DNA of 64,000 nucleotides from a bacterium (GCA_013360195.1 JABWCQ010000002.1:62932-126931), one strand, 5' to 3'. Positions 5,319-49,316 are shown, counted from the stretch's first letter. Program-made: numbers and translations. The notes: a model not told the origin generated them from the letters alone.

Positions 5319-7595
5319 ATGATAGCAAGAAAGCTCGCGTCCATAGCGATTTGGAGCGCCTTATTGGCCGTATTCGTCCATGGTGGATGTGCGTACTATA
5401 ACACGTTTTACAACATCAAGAAGGACTTTAAGGCCGCGGAAAGGCAGCAACAGAAAGTACTCGCAACTGGCGAAGCAACAATGCCGCCACGCCCCGGGCA
5501 GCCCAATCAGAGTTCTTCATCGGCGCAAGTATACCAGAATATCTTGCAGTCTTGCGCAAAGCTGCTTGAATACTATCCGAACAGCCGGTGGATAGATGAT
5601 GCTTTAATGATCATGGGGATTTGTTACTACAGATCTGACGAGTTCGCGCGCGCCGAACGGAAATTCACTGAACTGCTTACGATTTTTCCAACCAGTAAGC
5701 ACACTGAAGACGCGCTTGTTTGGAAAGCCAGGTCTCTTTTTGCGCAGGAACAACTGGACGTTGCAGAAGAATTTCTTTCGACCGCAGAAGTCAAACTGAA
5801 GTCTCCGGACGCTATTGCAGCAACTTATAGAATACGAGCTCGCATTAGCGAAAAACGAGAGCGTCCAGAAGAAGCTATCTCCTTTTTGGAACGAATTCGT
5901 GACATTTCATATGACCGAAGCGACAAGGCAAGCGACTTCCTTTCTCTTGGCAAATCCTATGAAAAATTGTCACGAAATTCTGAAGCAAAATCCGCGCTTC
6001 TGCGATGTCTGGATCTTACCAGGGATCCGAGCGAAGTCTTTGAAGCAAGGCGACTATTAGCGCAGATGGAGTCGCAGGAGGGGAACTATCAGAAGGCGCG
6101 TGCACTATTGAGACCTCTTCAAACAGATCGAAGGTTTCTCGAACGGGCGGGAGATGTCCAAGTAGAATTAGCAAGAGTTGAAGCAGTTAGCGGTTCCCCG
6201 GATTTATGTATCCAGATGCTGGAGCTTTATTGTTCCACTGCTCCGCAAGGAGAGTCAAAAGCAAGAGCCTATTACCTTCAAGGCGAAGTCGCGCGGGACA
6301 GACTAGGTCACTATGAAATCGCACAAGCGAAATTTGACAGCGTGGCAGGGGCGGGTGCTTCACGGTCATTGCAGGATTCAGCGCGGATCATGTCAAGACA
6401 GCTTCAACAAGGACTAACCGCTCTTTCTGTAATCCCCGAGCTTGAGAATAATCTGAGATCGTTGCTTCAAGAACCGCAAGAAGCTAAAACCTCCGATTCT
6501 GCAGAGGCACGTGACTCGAATGCGAGCGCCGGTCTAAACGAGACCAAAACTTCCGATACCGAAGTATTGAATCGGGGAGCCGAGCAAGTATCGACAGCCG
6601 ATACGATGGTCAGCATTTCAAGTGCAGACACGAATTCTCAAAGTCGTGAGGTAACAACAAACGATTCCACGGACTCACTCCGCCCGGACACCGAGTTCAT
6701 ACCCGAATCAAGGATCGACTCGAACTTGAGTCCAGCCGAGCTGGTAACGGATTCAATCATGAGAGCCTTGTCACAAAACGACTCGCTGCGGAGGAGTTTG
6801 ACAGAGGAAATAAAGGACGACTCCGTCCCGAAAGCCGAGCAGGAGAAAGCAGATTCGAATGACACTAATGTTTTGAGGGAAAGAATTGCGTCAATCAGTG
6901 TCCAACTCGTGGCCGCACATCTTGACGCTGCTTCTTTCTACGAATTGGTTGTGAACCAGCCTGACAGTGCACTTGAGCATACAAAAAGAGCGGTTGCAGT
7001 TCCCGATTCATCTTACGAACATTGGCGCGCAAGCATGCAACTTGGACTTGAACTTGAGAGGCGAGATCCGAGTGATCAAGGCGCGCTTGTTCAGTTTCAG
7101 CGGATTGCTGCCGCCGAAGCTGCGCCAACATCAATTAGAAACGCAGCAAGGGCAAGACTAGGCCTTCCTGAATTAGCGGTTGAAAAGAGTGATCAGGAAC
7201 TCGCTTTGGAATTGGCAGAAAAGAAGTTTTTGACCGATTCAGTCGACTCGAACGAGCTTCTCATGTTGTACAGGGCGGCGCTAGCATATGATTCAACAAG
7301 CGCATCAGGGATCAAATCACTTCAGGCAATCGCCTACATCCAGGAGTACCTTCAAGCTGAGTATGATTCAGCTCTGCACACGCATCTAGCAATCGGGCGG
7401 TTGTTCCCCGATTCGACTTTCTCCGAAGTTTCAATTCTGAAAGCACAGGAACCGGATTCGAATTCGATTTTCATGATGACCGATGAGGACTTGCAGGCGA
7501 CTCTCGCACCGGTAATTGATGTCTTGAGTACTTCATCAGATTCGACTGGTTGGCCACCAGAGGAGTCATCACTTCGTGGCCGGCGATTCCATTGA
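5319..7595 (+). CDS. TPR-repeat lipoprotein with a long Ser/Asp/Thr/Glu-rich low-complexity linker
   Basis: Lipobox-like N-terminus 'LLAVFVHGGCAYY'; TPR-like helices at residues ~80-330 and ~560-700; acidic S/T/D-rich disordered segment at residues ~380-520. Confidence 0.5.
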   Translation: MIARKLASIAIWSALLAVFVHGGCAYYNTFYNIKKDFKAAERQQQKVLATGEATMPPRPGQPNQSSSSAQVYQNILQSCAKLLEYYPNSRWIDDALMIMGICYYRSDEFARAERKFTELLTIFPTSKHTEDALVWKARSLFAQEQLDVAEEFLSTAEVKLKSPDAIAATYRIRARISEKRERPEEAISFLERIRDISYDRSDKASDFLSLGKSYEKLSRNSEAKSALLRCLDLTRDPSEVFEARRLLAQMESQEGNYQKARALLRPLQTDRRFLERAGDVQVELARVEAVSGSPDLCIQMLELYCSTAPQGESKARAYYLQGEVARDRLGHYEIAQAKFDSVAGAGASRSLQDSARIMSRQLQQGLTALSVIPELENNLRSLLQEPQEAKTSDSAEARDSNASAGLNETKTSDTEVLNRGAEQVSTADTMVSISSADTNSQSREVTTNDSTDSLRPDTEFIPESRIDSNLSPAELVTDSIMRALSQNDSLRRSLTEEIKDDSVPKAEQEKADSNDTNVLRERIASISVQLVAAHLDAASFYELVVNQPDSALEHTKRAVAVPDSSYEHWRASMQLGLELERRDPSDQGALVQFQRIAAAEAAPTSIRNAARARLGLPELAVEKSDQELALELAEKKFLTDSVDSNELLMLYRAALAYDSTSASGIKSLQAIAYIQEYLQAEYDSALHTHLAIGRLFPDSTFSEVSILKAQEPDSNSIFMMTDEDLQATLAPVIDVLSTSSDSTGWPPEESSLRGRRFH

Positions 7596-33403: not shown

Positions 33404-34813
33404 ATGACACGCAAAATGCTTTGTTGGCTGTTCACACTAGCAGTCGGCATCAGTTCCCATGGTTTATGCGGGGGGATTGATGTCGATTTTGTTTATTTTC
33501 TTGGTGAAGATAGTCTCACATACTGTGAGGTCTACACAGGAGTTCAACGCAGTGAACTTGTCTATATAGCGACACAAGAGGATAGTTCATACGCGCAATT
33601 TTCATTAATCACTACAATAGGAAGAAGTGACTCGATTCTCATTTCGGACACGCTTGACACGATTGACAAGACAAGTCGCACCGAATCTCATTCGGGCGGA
33701 GCATATTTCCCATACATTTCTCGGTACCTTCTGTTTCCAGGCAGCTATGACCTTACGATTGAATTGGTACAAGATAGTGCCGACAACTATGACTGGACGG
33801 AGATAGGACTTGAAGTTCCGTATGTGTCAGCGCAGGCTAGCTTATCTGGAATCGCGCTTGGCGCTGAATTGGCATTCGCAGCTGGTCCATCGGCGTTCAC
33901 AAGAAACGGGCTGCGCTTTGTCCCGAACCCATCAGGATTCTACGGCGCGGAGCTGCCTATGCTCTATTATTACCTTGAATGTTATGGACTGGATACTTTA
34001 GGTCCGGTCGAAGACTCGATAATGGTTCAGCGGCGTGTGATAGACGGCGAAACTGGCCAAGACGCAAAGCAGCCCTCCTTGCGGAAATATGCTCGTCCCG
34101 GTGAGTCACTCGTGATTGCAGACGGATTTCCCGCGTACACTTTGAGGACTGGCACATACATACTGTCTATTCAAGTTGAAGTTCCAAATCAAGCTGCCAG
34201 AGAAGCGATGAAGAAGTTCTACGTGTATCGCAGGGAAGATACCGACTTCTTATCCGCTGACGTAGGAAATAGAGCTTCAAGCATGATCAATTACAATTCT
34301 GAGGGTGGCATCCTGGAGACGATTGATCCAGATAGTGCGCTGGAATTGTTGCACTACCTCTTGACGAGACAGGAGATGAGGCGTGCAAGGGACATGGACT
34401 CAGAAGGAAAGCGGAAGTTCATTGCAGACTTCTGGAAGCGACGCGGTCCAGAAGAGGCTGACGCTGCCAATGTCCATTATTCGCGAGTTGCAGAAGCGAA
34501 TAGGCGCTACAGTTTTCTTAACCGAGAAGGTTGGAGAACTGACCGTGGACGTGTCTTCATTTTGTACGGTGAACCTGATTTTGTCGACCGCCGATATGCC
34601 GATGCTGCAGGACTAGACCACGAGATTTGGCACTATGACAAGATAGAAGGAGGAGTTCTCTTTATTTTCGTTGACCAAGCCGGCTTTGGCGACTTAACCC
34701 TTGTGCACTCGACAAAGCGTGGAGAGATTTACAATCCCAACGCACTAATTGTGAAGCAGAACCAGAACCCGGCTTCAAAACTCATCGAACAGGGGAGAGG
34801 TCTTCGTGAATGA
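33404..34813 (+). CDS. secreted GWxTD-domain protein
   Basis: Signal peptide 'MTRKMLCWLFTLAVGISSHG'; C-terminal 'REGWRTDRGRVFILYGEPDFVD...HEIWHYD' matches the GWxTD motif family. Confidence 0.55.
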   Translation: MTRKMLCWLFTLAVGISSHGLCGGIDVDFVYFLGEDSLTYCEVYTGVQRSELVYIATQEDSSYAQFSLITTIGRSDSILISDTLDTIDKTSRTESHSGGAYFPYISRYLLFPGSYDLTIELVQDSADNYDWTEIGLEVPYVSAQASLSGIALGAELAFAAGPSAFTRNGLRFVPNPSGFYGAELPMLYYYLECYGLDTLGPVEDSIMVQRRVIDGETGQDAKQPSLRKYARPGESLVIADGFPAYTLRTGTYILSIQVEVPNQAAREAMKKFYVYRREDTDFLSADVGNRASSMINYNSEGGILETIDPDSALELLHYLLTRQEMRRARDMDSEGKRKFIADFWKRRGPEEADAANVHYSRVAEANRRYSFLNREGWRTDRGRVFILYGEPDFVDRRYADAAGLDHEIWHYDKIEGGVLFIFVDQAGFGDLTLVHSTKRGEIYNPNALIVKQNQNPASKLIEQGRGLRE

Positions 34814-35570
34814 AGTTGCAGTTCACGCCCAGAATCTTGGTAAAACCTATCGTAATACGGTAGGCAGCAATGTAATTGGTTGTCAGAATGTTGAGTTTCA
34901 GGCGCACTTTGGGTCAATCTTTGGAATACTTGGCACGAACGGGGCAGGCAAAACTACAACACTTCGAATGCTGGCCACGATGCTGCAACCAACGCAAGGA
35001 ACTGCTACTGTCGCAGGTCATGACTTACGCCGCAGTCCGCAGGAAGTGCGAAGGCAAATTGGCTTTCTATCCGCATCTACCGGGGTGTATGGACGGTTAA
35101 CCGCGCGTGAAATGCTTTCTTATTTTGCAGCTCTGCATGGGTTCGAGAGAAGAGCGTCAGAGGCTCGAATAGCCGAGATTGCTGATCTATTAGACCTGCA
35201 CGAATTCTTAGACAGAAGGTGTGAGAAACTCTCGACTGGACAGCGTCAGCGCGTAAGTATTGGAAGAACAATTTTGCACGACCCTCCGGTTCTGATTTTT
35301 GATGAGCCAACGAGTGGACTGGACATTCTTGCCGCTTCACAAATCGTGAATTTCATGCGCGTAAGCAAAGAAAGGGGGAAATGTGTGCTTCTTTCAACTC
35401 ATGTGATGAGAGAGGCAGAACTCTTATGTGATGAAATGATATTGATCCACCAAGGTCTGGTAAAAGATAGGGGAAGTGTTGCGGACCTGCAGCGTCGCCA
35501 TGAAAGCGTGCAGCTGGAAGTCGTGTTTCTGCGTGCAATAGGCGAGGATTCGTCGGCATTTCACAACTGA
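34806..35570 (+). CDS. ABC transporter ATP-binding protein (ABC-2/GldA-like), no cognate permease adjacent
   Basis: Walker A 'GTNGAGKTT', signature 'LSTGQRQRV', Walker B 'LIFDEPTSGLD'; start overlaps the GWxTD gene stop by 8 nt. Confidence 0.85.
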   Translation: MNEVAVHAQNLGKTYRNTVGSNVIGCQNVEFQAHFGSIFGILGTNGAGKTTTLRMLATMLQPTQGTATVAGHDLRRSPQEVRRQIGFLSASTGVYGRLTAREMLSYFAALHGFERRASEARIAEIADLLDLHEFLDRRCEKLSTGQRQRVSIGRTILHDPPVLIFDEPTSGLDILAASQIVNFMRVSKERGKCVLLSTHVMREAELLCDEMILIHQGLVKDRGSVADLQRRHESVQLEVVFLRAIGEDSSAFHN

Positions 35571-35572
35571 AT

Positions 35573-36310
35573 GTGGCACCAGCTTTGCGCAATCTCCGAA
35601 TCATGCGCAAACTCGATAAGATTCAAGTTTTTCAAGTATCTACAGGTTTCTTTGGCGCCTTTGATTGTGCTGCAGTCCAGACACTTCTGCTCGCGCTGAA
35701 GTGTCGAGACGTGAATACGTACTTTCATAGTATGCGTGTTTCTGGTCTGGCATCCGAAATGGGCAGCATTCTTGGCTTAAGTGCAAGAAGTCTCGAGGAG
35801 TTGGCAATCGCCGGACTTTTGCATGACATCGGCAAGATCGGATTGCCAGACAGTGTGCTCCAGAAGAGCGGCAGGCTATCAAAGACCGAGAGGGGAGTCG
35901 TGACTCAGCATCCGGAATTGAGCGCAAGTATTATTGCACCATTGCCTGGATTTGAGCGAGTAAGAGAAATTATTGTCCAGCATCACGAGCGATTCGATGG
36001 ATCAGGTTACCCGGGTATTCGAAAAAGTGACGGGATCATGATGGAAGCTCGGGTTCTGACAATTGCCGACGCATTCGATGCAATGGTGTCGGAACGCCCC
36101 TATCGCGATCCTCTTTCGAGTCGCGAAGCATTGGCACAGATTGAACGTGAAGTGGGTACTCAGTTCTGCCCGGTTGGCTTTCAAGCTTTGCTCGAAGTCT
36201 TTAGGGAAGGACAACGACTGGAACCAGGCCGCCAAAGGGAAATCCGGACCGGGATTGACTCCCTGGTCACAACTCTTGGAACCCCCAAATCATTAACGTT
36301 ATGTTTATAA
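35573..36310 (+). CDS. HD-GYP domain phosphohydrolase (putative c-di-GMP phosphodiesterase), no receiver or sensor domain
   Basis: 'HSMRVS', 'LLHDIGKIGLPD', 'HHERFDGSGYPGIRK' HD and GYP motifs; starts 2 nt after the ABC gene stop. Confidence 0.8.
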   Translation: MAPALRNLRIMRKLDKIQVFQVSTGFFGAFDCAAVQTLLLALKCRDVNTYFHSMRVSGLASEMGSILGLSARSLEELAIAGLLHDIGKIGLPDSVLQKSGRLSKTERGVVTQHPELSASIIAPLPGFERVREIIVQHHERFDGSGYPGIRKSDGIMMEARVLTIADAFDAMVSERPYRDPLSSREALAQIEREVGTQFCPVGFQALLEVFREGQRLEPGRQREIRTGIDSLVTTLGTPKSLTLCL

Positions 36311-36578
36311 TAAATTTAAGATTCGAGTTTTGAATCGGATTTTTTTCGATTTCCAGTGAGCAGTGTTGCGCAAGCCATTGCGATTTATTATATTTATCAA
36401 TTGTTGGAAAGTGAATTTAGGAGTTCAATGTCCCTTCGTTAGAGGTTTTCGAGGCTCTGCCTTATTTTACGTTTTTGTATTGTAAACGACACCTCTAACA
36501 CGGCGTGCATTTGCTCCGGTTCGTTGCTTCTATGGCCGAATGGACAATCCGCTCCGTTCGGTTTTTTCATTTCACCTA
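36311..36578 (+). promoter_or_regulatory. long AT-rich structured leader/promoter region upstream of the porU-like gene
   Basis: 268-nt non-coding region, the largest in the window; contains inverted repeat GTTAGAGGT(36438-36446)...ACCTCTAAC, a T7 run and TATTATATTTAT. Confidence 0.3.
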
Positions 36579-39500
36579 ATGTTGAAAACTAACTCGCTCA
36601 GAATACGCGCTATAGTGTTGGTTTGCGCAGTGTTTGCTTGCCATGTCTCATCTGCAAGTGAAGTACGAGTTGTTTCTTCGGACGATTCGGGTGTTGAGTT
36701 TGTCTGGTCGTCGGGAATTCAATCCGCGAAACTGCACGGCACGAGTGATCTTCGGGCGGTATTGAGATCTGCGGATTGGATTACCCAATCTGGTGCTTTG
36801 ATTCCCGTCATTAAGTTGCTTGTCGCTTGTCCGACGGGGTCGACACCGCGACTGGAGGTTCAGAGGGTTGAAACGCGTTTGTTAAACATGGACCTTCCTC
36901 CAGCTGAGGAGCTGCCCGAAGTGTCCAGTGCAGTGAACACCGATGTTCGGATTTCTGGTGTTGAACAATGGCGCGGCTTCACGATTGCCCATATCGAAAT
37001 TAGGGCGGCCAGTCCATCTTCGCAGGGGACATCCGTACTTGAAACAGTGCATGCGACCGTGCGTTTTGTTGGCGGTTTGGATCAAAAGGGTCCGTTCGCC
37101 CGCGAAGAAAAGCTGCTGAAAGACTTGGTTATAAACGGTCGGGAAGCGACCCACTGGTGGACTCCTAGTTCCCGGATTTTGCAGAGTTTGGATGCTTCGA
37201 ACGAAGCTTGGCCCGACATTCAGCTTCACAAACTGGCCGTCACAGAGACAGGCTTCCACGTGATGACCGCCGAATGGCTTCAAGTTCAGGGGATTCAAGT
37301 CGTCGGTGTAGCATCGGACCGGATTCGAATGTTTGGGAACGGGGGGAGGCTTCTGCCTGCCGGTCTCATAAGCGTCCCCGATTCAGTGTTAAAGGAAATT
37401 TCGATTCTCATTGAAGATGGGAATGACGGGAGTATTGACCAAGGAGACCGAATCATCTTTTATGGCGAAGGTCTAAAGGGTTTTGATTACTGTGACGGGA
37501 GTCTGCTGAACGACCATGGCCATGCAAGTCCCTATTCAATGGAGAACATCTATTGGATTGGGATTGGGGGGGCTGACGACCAGGGACTTCGTATGGACAC
37601 AATTCAGAGTCTCAGTCAAACAGTACCAGTCGATACAGTTCTGGGCCAAGTCTATTTGGATCAGGAACAATTCATCTATGCGGTTTCCGGCTTGCAGTCA
37701 AATTCCGGTGTTGTTTGGTATATGGCAACGCTTGATGCTTCTAGCACACGTACCATCTCAGTCAATTTGGATGCAGTAAGTTCTGGCAGAGGTTCACTTA
37801 GAATTCGCATGGATTCGATATCGGGAAGCGGTAATAACTTCAACGTTTATGTCAACGACACACCGGTCAGCATAGGCGCCTATACAACACCGCTTACTAT
37901 TCAGATTCCTGAAGGAGTATTTCGGACAGGTAGCAATACAGTAAGATTCGAGAATAATACGACCAGGCAGGTCTTGTTGAATTACATAGAAGTTGAGTAT
38001 GACAAGACCTTGCAGTCAGCCACAGGTGTTATTGAGTTTCCGGCGCCGCGTAATCAAACCGGTGCTTTTAGATACGAAACTGGTTTGAATCAGGATGCAT
38101 ACTTGGCAGAAATATCTAATCCCTTGAGTCCGCGCATCGCGAGAGGGTCTATAGTAACAGACTCAAGTTTTGCTACAGGACAACGAAGATACTTTGGCGC
38201 TAATCAAGGGGGCAGCAGATTTCGTACACCGGTATACAGGGGCAGGAAGTCTTTTGACGCAAGCGACTACCAGATGCTTCGTGACCAAGCGAATGAGGCC
38301 GGTATAGTGATAATCACATACGATGACTGGTACGACGAACTTGAGCCGCTCATTGCCATGCATGCCCAGTATGAAGAAGAGCCTCTTAAGGCTGTTAGAG
38401 TTAAAATCTCGCATATTTATGATGAGTTCTCTTGGGGTGTGAAGGATCCGACAGCAATACGAAATTTCTTACGCTATGCACACGAGAATTGGCGTGGCCC
38501 TGCAGGAAACGCTGAGTCTCCAAGGTACGTGTTGTTCGTCGGCGATGGAGATTATGACTACAGAAATCTCACTTCAAGTTCTGACGATAATTGGATTCCG
38601 CCGTGGGAGAGTCTCGGCACGTGCACAGACGACTACTATGTGGACTTTGATGACTCGGAGTCTTTGCTTGACATGATGTCGGGTAGATGGCCAGTGCAAT
38701 CAGCCTCGGAAGTCGAAGCAATCGTTGAAAAGACCGTAAACTATGCGTTAACGCCTCTTTATGGACCCTGGAAGAACACCGCGACTTTTGTGGCTGATGA
38801 TGAATGGAAAAGTGGATTCTGCAGTGAAGATTTTCACACCGAGGATTCCGAAGACTTGATTAACGACGTATTGCCGGAGTACTTTACGTTCAGAAAACTG
38901 TACCAGATTCTCTATCCTTTTCGTCAATCGACCTCGACCTCACTTAAACCTGACGGTACTAGGGACCTGATTGAAACAATTAATTCCGGCACTCTCCTTG
39001 TCAATTATGTTGGTCACGGGAATGAACGAGTGTGGACAGATGAGCAACTGTTCGTGATGGATAGAGATTTCCCGCTGATTGACAACCATCGACTTTGGCC
39101 GGTAATTGTTGCCGGAACATGTACGTGGGGAGGTTTTGACCGACCCAACGAAAGATGCTTCCCTGAACTTCTTCTTGGTGCCGATGATATCGGATCTATT
39201 GCTTGCATTGCCGCGACGAGATTCACATTCGTTTCGCAGAATCAGCTTCTGACAGAAGAGTTTTATCGTGAGATATTTCGACAAGGGATCGAAATGCGGC
39301 GGAGTCTGGGCGAGGCTCTGCTTCTTGTCAAGCCGCTTCGGGCTGACAATAAGCTTTATCATACGCTTGGGAATCCAGTCTTGCGGTTGGCAACTCCAGA
39401 GTATTTCGCTCACGTGGATCAGAGGGACGACTCCTTGCAGGCAGGTGGGCTTTTTCAGCTGAGCGGGTTTGTCTCACGCACAGATGACTCAAATGAGTCA

Positions 39501-40532
39501 CACCAGTCTCCTCAGCGTCGGAACATCGATGAGGACGTGTGGGCGGACTTTCAGGGCATCGTTGAGGCACGAGTATTTGACTCCGAAGACTCAGCAGCTT
39601 ACTATTTCCCAAATCCTGCGAATTGCAGTGTTCCCTTGCAAACACCATTTTATTATGGGCTGCCTGGCAATGCAATTTTCCGCGGCAGGTCTTCAATCGT
39701 AAATGGAAGATTTAACGTTGTGTTTCGCGTGCCACGCGATATTCAGTATGGTGGCGAGAATGCAAAAGTCAGTCTCTACTTTTTTGGAAAATCAGAGAGT
39801 GAAAGTGACTCGGCGGATGGGATTGGCATCGAACAGCCACTTAGGATTGCAAGCGCAGCAGCGGCTGTTACTGATACAGTACCTCCCGTAATCGGTGCCT
39901 GGCTCGAAAATACGTCCTTTCGGTCCGGTGACCAAGTCAGCCGCTCACCGCGCTTAATAGTTCGATTAAGTGACGAATCGGGCCTCAATCTGTCAGGCGA
40001 AGTCGGTCACAAGATAACAGCCCGAATCGATGAAGCCCAAGCAGAGGACATAACGCAGTTTTTCAATTATGACGTAGATAGCTACACAGATGGTGAGCTA
40101 GTTCGAACCATTGGTCCGCTTTCTGAAGGTTTTCATCGCTTGACCGTCGAAGCTTGGGATTCCTTTAACAATCTGAACTTACAGACCTTGGATTTTGTCG
40201 TGGGTCAGCAGGCCGAAGAGGGATTTGCAATAAACGACGTCTTAAACTGGCCGAACCCGATGTCATCTGAAACTTATTTCACGTATTCTTTAACGCAGGA
40301 AGGGACGAGAGACGTCAGGATACGTGTTTTCACAATCAGCGGAAAGCTGGTGGCTGAATTAGACGGCCTTGGGACCAGGCAGCTTTACAACAGTAATAGT
40401 GATCGGCCGTGGCTCGGCCGAGATGATGAAGGATATGAGTTGGCGAACGGAGTTTACTTCTACAAGGTGATTGCCACACATGAGAGAGGATACTCAGCCG
40501 AGGCGACCGGTAAGCTCGTTATTTTGCGATAA
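36579..40532 (+). CDS. porU: C25-family (gingipain-like) cysteine peptidase with T9SS C-terminal domain, PorU-like sortase candidate
   Basis: Signal peptide 'MLKTNSLRIRAIVLVCAVFACHVSSA' (start set at ATG 36579, in frame with the 36540 ORF); C25 His/Cys dyad context 'VNYVGHGNERVW' and 'VIVAGTCTWGGF'; 'YVLFVGDGDYDYR'; C-terminal 'WPNPMSSETYF...NGVYFYKVIATHERG...KLVILR' sorting domain; immediately followed by a porV-like gene, as in P. gingivalis and F. johnsoniae. Confidence 0.6.
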   Translation: MLKTNSLRIRAIVLVCAVFACHVSSASEVRVVSSDDSGVEFVWSSGIQSAKLHGTSDLRAVLRSADWITQSGALIPVIKLLVACPTGSTPRLEVQRVETRLLNMDLPPAEELPEVSSAVNTDVRISGVEQWRGFTIAHIEIRAASPSSQGTSVLETVHATVRFVGGLDQKGPFAREEKLLKDLVINGREATHWWTPSSRILQSLDASNEAWPDIQLHKLAVTETGFHVMTAEWLQVQGIQVVGVASDRIRMFGNGGRLLPAGLISVPDSVLKEISILIEDGNDGSIDQGDRIIFYGEGLKGFDYCDGSLLNDHGHASPYSMENIYWIGIGGADDQGLRMDTIQSLSQTVPVDTVLGQVYLDQEQFIYAVSGLQSNSGVVWYMATLDASSTRTISVNLDAVSSGRGSLRIRMDSISGSGNNFNVYVNDTPVSIGAYTTPLTIQIPEGVFRTGSNTVRFENNTTRQVLLNYIEVEYDKTLQSATGVIEFPAPRNQTGAFRYETGLNQDAYLAEISNPLSPRIARGSIVTDSSFATGQRRYFGANQGGSRFRTPVYRGRKSFDASDYQMLRDQANEAGIVIITYDDWYDELEPLIAMHAQYEEEPLKAVRVKISHIYDEFSWGVKDPTAIRNFLRYAHENWRGPAGNAESPRYVLFVGDGDYDYRNLTSSSDDNWIPPWESLGTCTDDYYVDFDDSESLLDMMSGRWPVQSASEVEAIVEKTVNYALTPLYGPWKNTATFVADDEWKSGFCSEDFHTEDSEDLINDVLPEYFTFRKLYQILYPFRQSTSTSLKPDGTRDLIETINSGTLLVNYVGHGNERVWTDEQLFVMDRDFPLIDNHRLWPVIVAGTCTWGGFDRPNERCFPELLLGADDIGSIACIAATRFTFVSQNQLLTEEFYREIFRQGIEMRRSLGEALLLVKPLRADNKLYHTLGNPVLRLATPEYFAHVDQRDDSLQAGGLFQLSGFVSRTDDSNESHQSPQRRNIDEDVWADFQGIVEARVFDSEDSAAYYFPNPANCSVPLQTPFYYGLPGNAIFRGRSSIVNGRFNVVFRVPRDIQYGGENAKVSLYFFGKSESESDSADGIGIEQPLRIASAAAAVTDTVPPVIGAWLENTSFRSGDQVSRSPRLIVRLSDESGLNLSGEVGHKITARIDEAQAEDITQFFNYDVDSYTDGELVRTIGPLSEGFHRLTVEAWDSFNNLNLQTLDFVVGQQAEEGFAINDVLNWPNPMSSETYFTYSLTQEGTRDVRIRVFTISGKLVAELDGLGTRQLYNSNSDRPWLGRDDEGYELANGVYFYKVIATHERGYSAEATGKLVILR

Positions 40533-40563: not shown

Positions 40564-41610
40564 ATGAAGAAGCGGATTTTTGCAATCTGCCTGACTTTGC
40601 TGGGAGTTTTCACCCATCAAGTGTATGCTGCGAGTGTAAGTCAAGCAACATTGCTCTTCCTCAAAATTGCACCTGGCGCGAGACCAGCCGGAATGGGCGA
40701 GACCTTTGTCGCCCTGGCAGATGACGCTACTGCGACGTGGTGGAATCCTGCCGGGCTGGCATTTCAGCGCGGTAATGAAGTGACAATGATGTATTCACGT
40801 TGGCTGCCCCAGTTCAATCTTTCAGACCTTTATTACGCGTTTCTGAGCGGCACTTACGAAGTACCTGAATGGGGCACATTTGGAGCGAACATCGTGTTCC
40901 TAAATCTTGGTGAGACACAGCGAACCGGCCCGTCAGGCGAGGCCCTTGGTACGTTCTCATCCTATGAAATGGCGGTGACAGGTACATACGGTGCACTCAT
41001 TGACGAGAACACTTCAATGGGTGTCGGCCTCAAGCTTGCATATAGTAATCTTTCACCTGTCGGTGCAGGTGCTGAGCAAGGCAAAGGAACTGCAACTGCA
41101 ATCGCCGCGGACATTGGCTTGTTGCACAAAGCCACTTTCATGCCTGGCCTCTCGCTCGGAGCAAATTTGTCAAACATGGGACCCAAGGTGTCCTATATCG
41201 ACCGTGCGCAAGCCGATCCTTTGCCAACAACATTGAAATTTGGAATTGCGTACAAGATTCTTGACCAGGAGTATAACAAACTGACCATCGCATCTGACGT
41301 TGACAAGGAACTTGTCAAGCGTGACGAATTCGGTAAGTCAGATGAGTTCTATGAGGCACTTTTCTCGGCCTGGGGTGACGGAGATCTTGTGAAGTCACTG
41401 ATTTGGCACGTGGGTGCCGAGTATTGGTATTCAACTCTCGTTGGTCTTCGCGGTGGTTACTACAATGACCATTTGGGACGGGTATTTCCGTACACGTTTG
41501 GCGTATCTTTGAAATACAGTACGTACCGATTTGATTTCAGTTATCTGACCGCCGGTGAGAATCACCCGTTGACAGACACGATGCGCTATTCACTCTCGGT
41601 GGATTTCTAA
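40564..41610 (+). CDS. porV: PorV/LptO-family outer-membrane beta-barrel
   Basis: Signal peptide 'MKKRIFAICLTLLGVFTHQVYA'; hallmark N-terminal 'FLKIAPGARPAGMGETFVALADDATATWWNPAGLAF'; alternating beta-strand pattern; C-terminal '...YSLSVDF'. Confidence 0.55.
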   Translation: MKKRIFAICLTLLGVFTHQVYAASVSQATLLFLKIAPGARPAGMGETFVALADDATATWWNPAGLAFQRGNEVTMMYSRWLPQFNLSDLYYAFLSGTYEVPEWGTFGANIVFLNLGETQRTGPSGEALGTFSSYEMAVTGTYGALIDENTSMGVGLKLAYSNLSPVGAGAEQGKGTATAIAADIGLLHKATFMPGLSLGANLSNMGPKVSYIDRAQADPLPTTLKFGIAYKILDQEYNKLTIASDVDKELVKRDEFGKSDEFYEALFSAWGDGDLVKSLIWHVGAEYWYSTLVGLRGGYYNDHLGRVFPYTFGVSLKYSTYRFDFSYLTAGENHPLTDTMRYSLSVDF

Positions 41611-41701
41611 ACTGAAAACTCTTGCCTTAATCGGACTTATCGCTGCCTGCCTTTCTGGTTGGTCAGCGCCCGTTTCACATTTCCCGAGCAATCGAGTTCA
41701 T

Positions 41702-44566
41702 GTGAGATCTCTTGACGAGCCTTGGCCGGCCGGTCAGCCTATACGCTTATGTGCTATACGAGTCGAATTTCTGGAGGATAACCTTACCGGAACAACCGGT
41801 ACAGGAAAGTTCAATAGCGGCTTTCCAGATACCCTTACAATTGACCCATTGCCCCACAATCGCCAGTATTTCGAAGACCATCTTGCGTTCATGCAAGACT
41901 ACTTCAATACAGTTTCTAAAGGCATGGTCACCTTTGAACGGCTTGACGTGTATCCGCTCGCACATGACAGTGCCTACACTCTGTCATTCCCTATGTGGCA
42001 CTATAACCATAATTCTGATACGGCTTTGTTGAATCGCCGGCTTGTTGAACTTTTTGCACAATCCACGACCCTGGCTTCATCGGACATCAATTTTGAATCG
42101 TACGATGCAATTCTCGTCTTCCATGCCGGAGTCGGGAAGGACTTCAATATTGGCTTCGACAATACGCCATTTGACATTCCATCCGCCTACATTTCAGAAA
42201 GTGACCTTCGCCGATACAATCTTAACTTACCTTCAGGTGTAACGCGTGGCCTGATCCTTCCTGAAGGTCAGAATCAAGACGAAACCCTCCAACTTGGCGT
42301 CGAACTATCGTTGAATGGTGTCATGATCAAGCTTTTTGGCAACTGGCTCGGCATGCCTGACCTCTACAATACAGAGACAGGCGCGAGTGGCATCGGAAGG
42401 TGGGGTATGATGGATCAGGGATCGGGCAATGTTAATGCAATGGTACCTGCGTATCCCGATGCTTGGTCCAGGGTGTTCATGGGGTGGTCAACTGCAAACA
42501 CAGTGCTTCCTGGCGGAGCCGTGGACACAATCTCCTTGGCACGTCCCGGTAGCGATTCCATTCCAGATATAGTGAAGATTCCAATTTCCGCGAACGAGTA
42601 TTATCTGCTTGAAAACAGGAATGCAGATGCAGATTCGGTGGGTCATGTCGCACTTTATGATCGCGACGGGCGACTAATGACCGTTGACCTCCTCGGCAAT
42701 GTGTATGTTGAGACTGACTTCAAGATACCAGTGCGTGCATCACACTATGATTTTGGAATTCCAGGAAGCGGCATCCTCATATGGCATATCAATGACAGTG
42801 TAGTATCAGCGAATTATTCAACAAATCGAATAAATGCGAACCCGCAATACAGAGGTGTCGATCTGGTTGAGGCCGATGGGTCACAAGATATTGGCCGTGA
42901 ATACGGGTTTGCGACCGCGGGATCCGGCACAGAGTTAGGAGTGCAGGAAGATTGCTGGTACCGCGACAACCGAACGCATAGAAACGCTAACGGAGGCACG
43001 GCATTCGTCAGGTTCAACAACAATACTCGTCCGGCAGCCGTGACTAACGATCAAAGAAAGTCGTACTTGTCGATCGAGAATTTCAGTGATATAGACTCAG
43101 TAATGTCGGCTATGGTGTCGAATTCGATAGCAATGGACGGTTTTCCTGTTCAGCTTGGCACGAATTCTCCGCACAATTGGTCACTTGCCGATATTGATCT
43201 AGACGGCAAACAGGACGTATGCTTTCAGAAAGATAATGAAATTCGTGGAATAGGTAGTGATTCCGGCTTGACCGTACTGAAACGATTTGAAGCGAATGTC
43301 GAGTTCGACTTGCGAGCAAGCCGTTATCCAATAGATGTGAACGATAACGGACACAATGAGATATGGTATGTCGCTGGAAATGACTCATTGGGATTCGTGG
43401 AAGTTACAAATGTTGGTACAATTCAGCGAAATGCTGCTTTGCCAGTAAGTTCGTTTTCAATTGCTAGATTAGAATTCTTGGATACCGATCCAAATTTGGT
43501 AGTGCTCTTTCAAGGGAATGGGACCATGGATTTTCCGAGAAGAGTCACTATTTTCAATTCAAGCCTGAACCTTATTCTTCAGCAGGAAGTCGATTGGGGC
43601 GGATTTCACGGGTTGTCAAATCTGACGTCAGTAGCAGCAGGCAATGTCCTTTTCTGGAGCTCAGACAGGGCACTGCTCTTGGACATTTCAGATTCCGCTC
43701 GCGTTGTTTGGAATGTTGTGTTACACAATTCAAATCAACCCACGATAATCTCTGGACCGGAATCATCGGAGATCTATTTCCCAAATAACGGCTATGTCAA
43801 CTTCGATTCTGGGGCGTTGATTTGTCCAGCTTCAGAATGCCTAGAACCTATAGCCGACTGGGATCAGGACGGTGTAATTGATGGTGGCGGTTCGCGCGGC
43901 GCAGATCACACGCCACGAGAGGACTTTCCTTTCCAAAGTTTGAACATGGATGAGCTGTTTGACCTGAATTTTGATGGTTTTCCAGATCTCTTGCGAGTTA
44001 CCAATGAAAGCAGCAGTTTAACCGATCTCGAAAGCTCGACTGTTCATGCTTTTGATCATCGAGGAGCGCGATACTCCGATTTTCCACTTGTAACATTAGG
44101 AAGACCAACGATCGTCACCCTGGACACTACTGAGCGCAGGTACTATGCGATAACTGAATACCGCAGCGGCAGTCACCACGTAATTGGTCTGCTTCGGCTT
44201 CCAATAGTGCCTGAAGGTCAATCAGCCAAGTCCTATGCAGACGTCGAGAACAGGATAATTTTCCTCGGTCCGTTGCAGAATGAAGTGCACAGCAGGGAAG
44301 AATTCGTATATGTTTGGCCAAATCCGACAAACGCAATTGCTAACTTTAGGATTACATTGCCTTATGCCGCTTCAGTCGAAGCAAAAGTGTTTGATCTTGC
44401 GGGCCGATGCGTGGCAAACTTAAGTACGGAATCAAGCTACGCAGGAACTTTTGACCTTCAGTGGGATACAGTTACAGTTGAGAGTGGAGTGTACTTGGGA
44501 AAAGTATTAGTACATGGTGGTGGTCAATCCCGCGAGAGCACCATCAAGATTGCTGTAGTGAAATGA
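41702..44566 (+). CDS. large exported protein: M6-(InhA)-like domain with substituted zinc-site residues + FG-GAP/VCBS-like repeats + T9SS C-terminal domain
   Basis: 'IKLFGNWLGMPDLYNTETG' aligns to the M6 'HEFGHxLGLPDEYD' zinc site, but H/E/H are K/L/N; FG-GAP-like 'DIDLDGKQDV', 'DWDQDGVIDGGG', 'NFDGFPDLL'; C-terminal 'FVYVWPNPTNAIANFRITL...GVYLGKVLVHGGG' sorting domain; the ORF-track GTG start gives no signal peptide, but the in-frame upstream extension encodes one. Confidence 0.5.
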   Translation: MRSLDEPWPAGQPIRLCAIRVEFLEDNLTGTTGTGKFNSGFPDTLTIDPLPHNRQYFEDHLAFMQDYFNTVSKGMVTFERLDVYPLAHDSAYTLSFPMWHYNHNSDTALLNRRLVELFAQSTTLASSDINFESYDAILVFHAGVGKDFNIGFDNTPFDIPSAYISESDLRRYNLNLPSGVTRGLILPEGQNQDETLQLGVELSLNGVMIKLFGNWLGMPDLYNTETGASGIGRWGMMDQGSGNVNAMVPAYPDAWSRVFMGWSTANTVLPGGAVDTISLARPGSDSIPDIVKIPISANEYYLLENRNADADSVGHVALYDRDGRLMTVDLLGNVYVETDFKIPVRASHYDFGIPGSGILIWHINDSVVSANYSTNRINANPQYRGVDLVEADGSQDIGREYGFATAGSGTELGVQEDCWYRDNRTHRNANGGTAFVRFNNNTRPAAVTNDQRKSYLSIENFSDIDSVMSAMVSNSIAMDGFPVQLGTNSPHNWSLADIDLDGKQDVCFQKDNEIRGIGSDSGLTVLKRFEANVEFDLRASRYPIDVNDNGHNEIWYVAGNDSLGFVEVTNVGTIQRNAALPVSSFSIARLEFLDTDPNLVVLFQGNGTMDFPRRVTIFNSSLNLILQQEVDWGGFHGLSNLTSVAAGNVLFWSSDRALLLDISDSARVVWNVVLHNSNQPTIISGPESSEIYFPNNGYVNFDSGALICPASECLEPIADWDQDGVIDGGGSRGADHTPREDFPFQSLNMDELFDLNFDGFPDLLRVTNESSSLTDLESSTVHAFDHRGARYSDFPLVTLGRPTIVTLDTTERRYYAITEYRSGSHHVIGLLRLPIVPEGQSAKSYADVENRIIFLGPLQNEVHSREEFVYVWPNPTNAIANFRITLPYAASVEAKVFDLAGRCVANLSTESSYAGTFDLQWDTVTVESGVYLGKVLVHGGGQSRESTIKIAVVK

Positions 44567-47686: not shown

Positions 47687-48670
47687 ATGGAGTATAAAAT
47701 GCGCTCCCCACACGTTTATCGTATCATCGTCGCACTGACAGTCCTGTCTATGATTCCCATTACCGGGTTTGCCGGGGATTTCGGTGTGTCACCACATCGT
47801 GCGCAATTCGCAGCGCCGGATTTCGGACAAGCTCCTGCTGAAGAGACATCACCACCAGACTTAGGTGGGAAGAAGAACGTCGGGCGCGCAGTCATGTTCA
47901 GCTTGATTGTGCCGGGTACCGGCCAACTTTATTCGGGATCTTGGCTTAGGGCACTTCCTTGGTTTGCCGTTGAAATTGCCGGTTGGGCATTATTCTCCCA
48001 GTACCACGCCAAGGGAACTGACAAGACGGATGAGTTTGAAGCTTTTGCAGGACCGTGGAAGAATAACGATCCATCAAACGGTAATTTCAATTATGACGCC
48101 TATATGGTGCGTGAGTACCAAGTAGCCTCCAATGAGACGTTTGCGCCAGTTCAATATGAAGGCAGTTTCGAAGATTGGTTGACCCTTGAGTGGGAAGATA
48201 GATCATCGCACCTTCCAGCGCCTTACACACACGATATTCAAACTGGAGATCGACAGCAGTATTATGAGATGATTGGCAAGTACTTCGAGCAATTTGGATT
48301 CGGATGGATTGACACGTATGACCGATCAGTTCCACTAAATGGCTCTACTCCTGAAAATATTTGGAGTGTTGGCGGCGACGACATTGCTACGGTCAAGTAT
48401 GATGGACAGAGTCAACTCTTTTTCACATACCGAGATATGCGAGGTGAGGCGAATGACCTTCTCGAAAAGGGCAATACTATGATGGAACTTGTCTTGGTTA
48501 ATCATGTGTTGTCAGCCCTCGATGCTGCGTTTGCAGCACGAAGCTACAATCGCAAGCAGGAATCCGCTGGACTGGGTTCAATGGACTTGAACTACCGAAT
48601 CAGAGCAGATAGGGAAGGCGATCTGACCAGAAGCCTCACTCTTAGCATGCCGCTTCCCAGGCTGAACTAA
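47687..48670 (+). CDS. secreted DUF5683-like protein
   Basis: Signal peptide 'MRSPHVYRIIVALTVLSMIPITGFA'; 'MFSLIVPGTGQLYSGSWLRALPWFAVEIAGW' motif, as in the Bacteroidetes DUF5683 '..LPGxGQxYN...' family. Confidence 0.4.
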   Translation: MEYKMRSPHVYRIIVALTVLSMIPITGFAGDFGVSPHRAQFAAPDFGQAPAEETSPPDLGGKKNVGRAVMFSLIVPGTGQLYSGSWLRALPWFAVEIAGWALFSQYHAKGTDKTDEFEAFAGPWKNNDPSNGNFNYDAYMVREYQVASNETFAPVQYEGSFEDWLTLEWEDRSSHLPAPYTHDIQTGDRQQYYEMIGKYFEQFGFGWIDTYDRSVPLNGSTPENIWSVGGDDIATVKYDGQSQLFFTYRDMRGEANDLLEKGNTMMELVLVNHVLSALDAAFAARSYNRKQESAGLGSMDLNYRIRADREGDLTRSLTLSMPLPRLN

Positions 48671-48701: not shown

Positions 48702-49316
48702 ATGTATCGTACCATGGCCACTGTGCTATGCCTGTGCTCCGTTGCATTCGCGCGAGAGCCGGGGCAAGCGCTTTTTCTCAAGTCTCTGCTGATTCCGGGT
48801 TGGGGGCAATATGAAGCTGGAAGGACGGATCATGCGTTAGCATTCTTGGGTGTAGACTTGCTACTGATTGGTTCTGCACTGAGTCTCCATCATCATGGAA
48901 GTCAGCTCCGCGATGATTATAAAGCGTTTGCATCGACACACGCAAGAGTCCGTGGAGATCACAATCGCGAGTTCTACATAGACGTTGCAAATTGGATGAG
49001 CGTGTACGATTATAATGACCAACGAATGTCGGAACGCAACTTTGGTGCGGTTTATGACACTGATTCGCAATATTGGATGTGGGACTCGGAAGCGAGTAGA
49101 TCGTATATGGATGAACTTAGGCTCACGTCGGATCGCTCCCTGAATCGCGTGATCTATGCAGTTGCACTAATCGGAGTCAATCACATTGTGAGCGCATTTC
49201 ACGCCGGTCGCCTCCAGTCCAACGCTGCGAAATCTGAGACAGGTCATTTCGGATGGAACGCACACCCTGTGACGACGTCTGACGGAGGCAAGCTCCAGTT
49301 CCTACTTTGGTGGTAA
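48702..49316 (+). CDS. secreted DUF5683-like protein (paralog of the previous gene)
   Basis: Signal peptide 'MYRTMATVLCLCSVAFA'; 'FLKSLLIPGWGQYEAGRTDHALAFLGVDLLLIG' shares the PGxGQ(L/Y) + TM motif with the upstream gene. Confidence 0.4.
   Translation: MYRTMATVLCLCSVAFAREPGQALFLKSLLIPGWGQYEAGRTDHALAFLGVDLLLIGSALSLHHHGSQLRDDYKAFASTHARVRGDHNREFYIDVANWMSVYDYNDQRMSERNFGAVYDTDSQYWMWDSEASRSYMDELRLTSDRSLNRVIYAVALIGVNHIVSAFHAGRLQSNAAKSETGHFGWNAHPVTTSDGGKLQFLLWW

Follow-up and report, generated by a model that had tools for sequence, protein, structure and literature searches.

The question raised by this locus is where translation begins in a gene whose reading frame carries a putative export signal with no canonical start codon in front of it, and what the encoded protein may do beside its neighbours. 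The window, by which the whole analysed stretch of 64,000 nucleotides (nt) of bacterial DNA is meant (GCA_013360195.1 JABWCQ010000002.1:62932-126931, positions counted from its first letter), contains a porU-porV cassette that belongs to a type IX secretion system (T9SS), and the third gene of this cassette, an inactivated M6-like T9SS protein designated here as M6i, follows porV directly. According to the comparative data, translation of M6i most probably starts at a CTG codon at position 41612.

The + strand reading frame that includes 41603 runs without a stop from 41573, just past TGA 41570-72, to TGA 44564-66. A mechanical list of open reading frames (ORFs) begins M6i at GTG 41702 and gives 954 amino acids (aa), and the coding sequence from the CTG occupies 41612..44566 and gives 984 aa, a size for which the label "giant" used in an earlier note on this DNA is not apt. 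The M6i frame 5' of GTG 41702 reads QTRCAIHSRWISKLKTLALIGLIAACLSGWSAPVSHFPSNRVH and holds no ATG, GTG or TTG; ATT 41588, ATT 41603 and CTG 41612 are the only near-cognate codons before it. These 43 codons without a canonical start are the longest such stretch among the 49 ORFs of the window. The ATT at 41603-05 and the CTG at 41612-14 were both located with the positions and sequence that the earlier note had reported, and the junction is composed as follows.

41599..41601, + strand: GTG codon of porV Val346, synonymously frozen, 11 nt 5' of the CTG, TGG in the M6i frame
41603..41605, + strand: ATT, the near-cognate initiator named in the earlier note, present in 5/12 clade members (AGT or ACT in the rest)
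41608..41610, + strand: porV stop codon TAA, 1 nt 5' of the CTG
41612..41614, + strand: CTG, proposed M6i start, invariant in 12 distinct loci
41612..41668, + strand: putative signal peptide MKTLALIGLIAACLSGWS(A), predicted cleavage site, lipobox-like IAAC in the window only
41702..41704, + strand: GTG, first canonical start, used by automatic calls (P0001, 954 aa), product without a signal peptide

The comparison covered about 15 kb per related genome, and the closest clade comprised 12 distinct loci (the window, L001-L005, L022, L081/84, L086, L088/89, L097 and L098/99) with approximately 50-80% amino-acid identity. In all 12 no ATG, GTG or TTG precedes the hydrophobic core, so that a search of orthologous contigs for a start 5' of the signal peptide, proposed in the earlier note, returned none in this clade, and the loci share the common junction GTG GAN TTC TAR N CTG. 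In total the lack of a canonical start 5' of the signal peptide is found in 16 distinct orthologous loci (the window and 15 others), and such recurrence, together with the length of the start-less stretch, makes the gap first pointed out from the window more than a chance event.

CTG is an allowed initiator of translation table 11, and here it is conserved as a codon. Among 17 invariant Leu columns in 10 M6i sequences the start CTG alone is encoded by a single codon, the other 16 using 3-6 codons each, in genes where CTG accounts for only 14-35% of Leu codons. Within 118 invariant 4-6-fold-degenerate M6i columns (11 sequences) two are single-codon, one of them being the start CTG, and in 148 such columns of porV (12 sequences) the only single-codon column is Val346 GTG; porV Phe348 is TTC in 12/12. 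The first G of the Val346 codon completes a Shine-Dalgarno-like GGA(G/T/C) located 7-9 nt from the CTG, and a GTT at this position would make a TTG start in the M6i frame. Exactly this replacement is present in the L082/L100 pair, where GTT at Val346 creates a TTG start at -11 and the CTG is lost (AAC and CGA); the change seen in this pair was probably one evolutionary event. Thus the locus combines codon-level conservation beyond the amino acid with the absence of a canonical alternative, as is expected of a conserved near-cognate start.

Two further subclades also have no canonical start: in L017/L090 an in-frame TGA is followed by GGAGG, 9 nt and CTG, and in L006/L096 the sequence ACG-CTG-AAG stands 23 nt after the porV stop. 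In all close loci porV begins with ATG and has a strong AGGAG 5-6 nt upstream, and the fourth gene of the cassette starts with ATG or GTG; since both of them have normal start signals, among the genes compared the CTG is specific to M6i. Six distant loci (L023, L027, L037, L066, L068, L075) were initially flagged as non-canonical by a hydrophobic-core heuristic; each has ATG, GTG or TTG before the hydrophobic stretch, and they are not counted as non-canonical. In another subclade the close relatives L014 and L018 differ at codon +9 after the porV stop (ATG, KEMKLKAV..., versus ATA, KEIKLKAV...), and both have a TTG two codons further, which represents one more drifting M6i start.

Translation from the CTG would yield what reads as a standard signal peptide in all 12 loci (M, then K/R/S/N, a hydrophobic core and an ...W-A/S end). 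The hydrophobic N-terminus is conserved in the same frame in all M6i orthologs, and in the window it is part of the product only if translation begins at CTG or ATT. The earlier note had recognized here a textbook lipoprotein signal; this reading fails on conservation among orthologs, because the lipobox IAAC matches in the window only and the signal peptide lacks Cys in 8/12 clade members, while the conserved end is A-x-W-A/S, of the signal-peptidase-I type. Because gene callers disallow CTG starts, the export signal is lost in the databases: public calls P0001-P0012, P0045 and P0052-P0054 start inside or past the signal peptide, with N-termini such as MVLTQTLVWG..., MATHFSERP... and MAMAAQAVSERWP..., the exception being P0010, from the TTG-start relative, whose call keeps the whole signal peptide. 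The truncated proteins look cytoplasmic, and any survey of T9SS substrates that asks for a sorting domain together with a signal peptide will therefore pass them over.

The mature part of M6i is organized as follows.

41714..43150, + strand: InhA/M6-fold region, catalytic-like domain and the next domain
42329..42361, + strand: degenerate zinc motif KLFGNWLGMPD, counterpart of HExxHxxGxxD by pairwise alignment to a true M6 protein
43151..44272, + strand: propeller-like, all-beta part that holds four DxDxDG motifs, its limits approximate, from AlphaFold2 (AF2) secondary structure and Foldseek
44312..44563, + strand: T9SS type A C-terminal sorting domain (TIGR04183), ending in KIAVVK
44564..44566, + strand: TGA at the end of M6i, within an ATGA that also holds the start codon of the next gene

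The best NCBIfam match of M6i is NF052323, "T9SS-dependent M6-like inactivated metalloprotease" (T9SSA_dep_M6i), with 417.8 bits and E = 9.6e-125, below the curated cutoff of 600 and with the best stretch at aa 39-506. The M6 domain model TIGR03296 gives 69.6 bits (E = 4e-19, cutoff 110.8), and in the Pfam scan at E<=0.01 PF05547 is not matched, the sorting domain being the only Pfam finding. The InhA-type fold characteristic of peptidase family M6 is present in M6i. The peptide IKLFGNWLGMPDLYNTETGASGIGRWGMMDQGSGN is encoded at 42326-42430. When M6i is compared by BLASTP with a plasmid-encoded Bacillus protein that is a bona fide M6 member (211 bits to TIGR03296), the two align with E = 3e-12, and GVMIKLFGNWLGMPDLY of M6i is placed over GIPAHELGHSFGLPDLY of the Bacillus protein, with KLFGN over HELGH. 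By this alignment K, L and N of M6i fall in the H, E and H columns, which correspond to the two zinc-binding His and the catalytic Glu, so the motif stands where the earlier note had put it and its ligand columns hold no His or Glu. The description of the zinc site as fully substituted was slightly overstated, since the Asp of the third ligand is kept: in the alignment the D of GMPD falls on that of GLPD, and it does not vary among orthologs. HExxH is found nowhere in the M6i protein and at this site in 0/120 homologs; all 62 of the closest homologs in the database have KLFGN, and the farther ones carry LMFGH, LMFGS or LMFGF. Searches of PDB sequences with M6i alone and with a 22-sequence profile returned no match.

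These alignments support M6i as an M6-derived protein without both zinc-binding His and the catalytic Glu. Judged by sequence and gene order, it is a divergent ortholog of the curated family NF052323 and not a novel kind of protein, because true members of the family (L059 with 808 bits and L041 with 890 bits) occupy the same cassette, in the order porU>porV>M6i>omp with canonical PorU and PorV. The idea of a dead peptidase, correct with regard to the lost His and Glu, is consequently not new: the inactivated M6-like T9SS protein is already catalogued, the window adds a divergent member, and the advance in this respect is incremental.

In the C-terminal half the sorting domain that had been proposed from the sequence was recovered, with TIGR04183 above its cutoff (27.1 bits versus 23) and PF18962 marginally under (25.7 bits versus 27), and the terminus KIAVV[KR] is invariant in M6i orthologs. 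The proposed FG-GAP/VCBS repeats fared less uniformly: no Pfam match to them was obtained in M6i at E<=0.01, but the propeller half holds the four DxDxDG motifs, the homologs carry PF13517/PF01839, and the full-length AF2 model (pLDDT 71.8) is all-beta at approximately residues 490-890. In the Foldseek search with this model beta-propellers dominate, and the top PDB match is PorZ (5M11) with E = 3e-11 and a TM-score of only 0.11-0.14.

The remaining genes of the cassette in the window are the following.

36540..40532, + strand: porU, T9SS sortase, first cassette gene (NCBIfam NF033707, 633 bits, cutoff 420; Pfam Peptidase_C25)
40564..41610, + strand: porV, outer-membrane shuttle protein (PorV_fam, 284 bits, cutoff 90), ending in ...MRYSLSVDF-TAA
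44563..47673, + strand: fourth cassette gene, 1036 aa, with signal peptide, HEYTH, PD40/TolB-like propeller and Omp85-type barrel

The order porU>porV>M6i>omp is found in 61/99 related loci from genome and metagenome collections, the others being truncated versions of that order, and porU is located 5' of porV in 70 of the loci that extend that far. In nearly all loci M6i is succeeded by the fourth gene, and throughout the close loci the M6i stop and the start of this gene overlap by 1 or 4 nt (-4 nt in the window). Within the closest clade the identity is 88-92% for PorV, 72-74% for the Omp85-like protein, 64-67% for PorU and 49-51% for M6i. The titles of cassette-bearing records name metagenome-assembled genomes (MAGs) of Calditrichaeota, KSB1, Ignavibacteria, Bacteroidota, Delongbacteria, Neomarinimicrobiota, Cloacimonadota and Kryptonium; L001, L004, L007, L009-L011 and others are titled "uncultured Alphaproteobacteria bacterium" (binchicken co-assemblies), and these labels are probably placeholders or errors. 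The NCBIfam names PorU2/PorV2 were considered as a lead and dropped, as the window and the bona fide NF052323 loci have canonical PorU and PorV, and literature searches on PorU2/PorV2 and on T9SS outside Bacteroidia found nothing on M6i.

Several observations concern the surroundings. In the fourth gene HEYTH is intact at aa 124-128, with weak Peptidase_MA_2 and flagellinolysin-like matches, so that the dead M6i has as its neighbour an Omp85 barrel joined to what may be an active metallopeptidase. At 33404-36310 (+ strand), 5' of porU, a GWxTD-domain protein (TIGR04514, 87 bits), an ABC ATPase, which among others matches the gliding-motility GldA model at 176 bits (below cutoff), and an HDIG-domain protein are encoded, and the two ORFs directly 3' of the cassette (47687-48670 and 48702-49316, + strand) have no NCBIfam match at E<=1e-5. 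In L022, at approximately 6007-6930, the M6i ORF is broken after 307 codons and the homology runs on to the normal end, which may be due to a frameshift, a pseudogene or an assembly error.

The explanation which accounts best for the whole locus, and which we consider probable, is that M6i is a Sec-exported, T9SS-targeted pseudo-peptidase with a coupled CTG start and a non-catalytic partner of PorU/PorV. Ribosomes finishing the strongly translated porV would reinitiate, or new ones would initiate, with low efficiency at CTG 41612, which lies 1 nt past the porV stop with a weak Shine-Dalgarno-like GGA ahead of it, and far less M6i than PorV would be produced. The protein would be exported by Sec and targeted to T9SS; its N-terminal half has the InhA/M6 fold (HExxH changed to K-L-x-x-N), a beta-propeller comes next and the type A sorting domain last. 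It would no longer cleave peptides, and the degenerate cleft of the old active site may bind a ligand or substrate. A binding partner devoid of catalysis is suggested by the invariance of the degenerate motif, the kept fold and the fixed place of the gene, with porV on one side and an outer-membrane protein on the other; on synteny and architecture only, this partner could be placed at the surface with the PorU/PorV sorting complex. The distances from porV to M6i (+1 nt) and from M6i to the next gene (-4 nt) both lie within the stop-to-start range of -8..+10 nt, which is associated with termination-reinitiation and enriched for subunits of one complex (PMC10666635). It is a tentative and doubtful extension of this explanation that M6i serves as a dedicated non-catalytic attachment subunit of PorU/PorV, similar to PorZ, in lineages of the Fibrobacteres-Chlorobi-Bacteroidetes (FCB) group outside the well-studied Bacteroidia, and that its dosage relative to PorV is set by a selected CUG coupled to porV termination.

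Several points weigh against the coupled CTG start and the partner role. CUG initiation in E. coli reaches only 1-2% of that from AUG (bioRxiv 10.1101/063800), and the "CUG start" of Caulobacter dnaA, considered as a precedent, turned out to be a negative example, as this codon with its Shine-Dalgarno sequence gives toeprints in vitro and is unused in vivo (PMC8443254). The Shine-Dalgarno-like element in the window is only GGTGGA and is constrained by porV coding, and in this genome ATT 41603 may act as an additional initiator. The functional role is read from gene order alone, and the lowest conservation of M6i among the cassette genes would suit an exposed cargo equally.

The last point leads to the alternative that survives best, namely that M6i, dead protease domain included, is an adhesin or binding protein of the cell surface which T9SS handles like any other cargo, and which only rides along in the porUV operon and has no part in the machinery of secretion or attachment; we regard it as possible, though rather unlikely. 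Its type A sorting domain is the same as in hundreds of cargo proteins, its C-terminal half evolves fast, and the NCBI family name "T9SS-dependent" treats the protein as cargo. On the other hand, a plain cargo role has against it the slot between porV and the Omp85-like gene that is held over very distant FCB lineages in about 99 loci, the tightly coupled junctions on both sides of M6i and the invariance of the degenerate active-site motif.

With regard to the initiator itself, the earlier note had offered ATT 41603 and CTG 41612 side by side, and only the CTG is conserved. Translation from the ATT inside the porV end would give the product MSKLKTLAL..., with two Lys added to the n-region, and as a near-cognate codon ATT has a strength similar to CTG in E. 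coli; it is found in the window, L001, L003, L086 and L098. Nevertheless, this codon is a by-product of the reading of porV GAT-TTC in another frame, it lies directly 3' of the GGA without a usable spacer, and since it is absent in 7/12 clade members it is not the conserved initiator, so that a start at the ATT appears improbable.

The GTG 41702 is the first canonical start and the one used by P0001; however, to begin there a cytoplasmic protein without signal peptide would have to leave untranslated 30 upstream codons that form a conserved signal-peptide-like segment, in frame and stop-free in all orthologs, and would bear a T9SS sorting domain useless without Sec export. Moreover, orthologs with canonical starts begin 5' of the hydrophobic core, and not at the GTG as cytoplasmic proteins, the outcome which the earlier note had named as fatal to its view; this possibility can be considered very improbable. 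Still less credit can be given to a sequencing or assembly error in 41603-41701 that hides a canonical start. A single sequence alone would be no proof against it, and the related contig L096 does have indel errors at the junction, but 12 distinct assemblies from different projects share the start-less junction with the frame intact, which excludes such an error and, of the two options previously left open, leaves the rare start supported.

Least of all can it be believed that M6i is made joined to PorV, through readthrough or a programmed frameshift at TTC-TAA, for although the TTC-TAA-N-CTG junction is conserved and the database ORF P0015 reads through from porV, the porV/M6i frame offset varies from subclade to subclade, a stop stands in frame between the two genes of L017/L090, UUC>UCU allows no slippery re-pairing, and a signal peptide after the C-terminal Phe of the barrel would be biologically senseless. 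Because the junction has no Rfam match and its RNA structure is neither unusual nor stable (z = 0.15), the idea of a riboswitch or frameshift element was set aside as well. The P0015 ORF itself (L096 900-1100, ENA contig_141) comes from two single-base indels within approximately 100 nt (GGACCATCC and TTTC versus TTC) which shift porV into the M6i frame in this long-read contig and are most likely homopolymer errors.

In summary, the locus provides comparative evidence for a clade-conserved CTG initiator with a matching synonymous constraint upstream and a TTG/CTG swap, and it would lend itself well to testing start-codon prediction and to the study of weak coupled initiation. The searchable literature appears to contain no report of a CTG start kept across this clade, of a coupling of that start to porV or of the truncation which results in the public gene calls inspected for the clade. 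The conservation of the cassette across Calditrichota-like, KSB1, Ignavibacteria, Delongbacteria, Marinimicrobia and Cloacimonadota MAGs points to candidate partners of the sortase complex outside the model Bacteroidia. If M6i is indeed a subunit of the machinery dosed in this way, it would be an example from nature of subunit stoichiometry governed by a near-cognate start together with a synonymous site frozen in the upstream gene.

Among known systems the closest is the NF052323 family, whose members, like M6i, have an M6-like N-terminal region devoid of HExxH, carry a type A sorting domain and are encoded after porU-porV and before the PD40/Omp85 gene. M6i differs in matching the family well in its N-terminal half only (aa 39-506), the propeller half being diverged, and in its start: for the above-cutoff members checked, from Ignavibacteria and Bacteroidota MAGs, the start is an ATG well 3' of porV, whereas the clade of the window has CTG 1 nt after the porV stop. 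In comparison with InhA (MEROPS M6; PDB 4YU5) the two zinc His and the catalytic Glu are replaced in M6i by K, N and L, and the C-terminus consists of a beta-propeller and a T9SS sorting domain instead of InhA's own C-terminal domains.

PorZ of Porphyromonas gingivalis (PDB 5M11) is a sorting-domain-bearing subunit of the PorU/V/Z/Q attachment complex. Its role is described in PMC8545088. Both PorZ and M6i combine a beta-propeller with a sorting domain, and both are genetically or physically tied to PorU/PorV; unlike M6i, PorZ has two propellers and no protease-like domain, the TM-score between them is very low, and in the NCBIfam scan M6i had no match to the PorZ family and no detectable sequence relationship to it. 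A functional analogy of M6i with PorZ may accordingly be put forward as a hypothesis only. With respect to other near-cognate bacterial starts, the difference of the present locus is that the CTG is kept clade-wide and is accompanied by a frozen synonymous site in the upstream gene.

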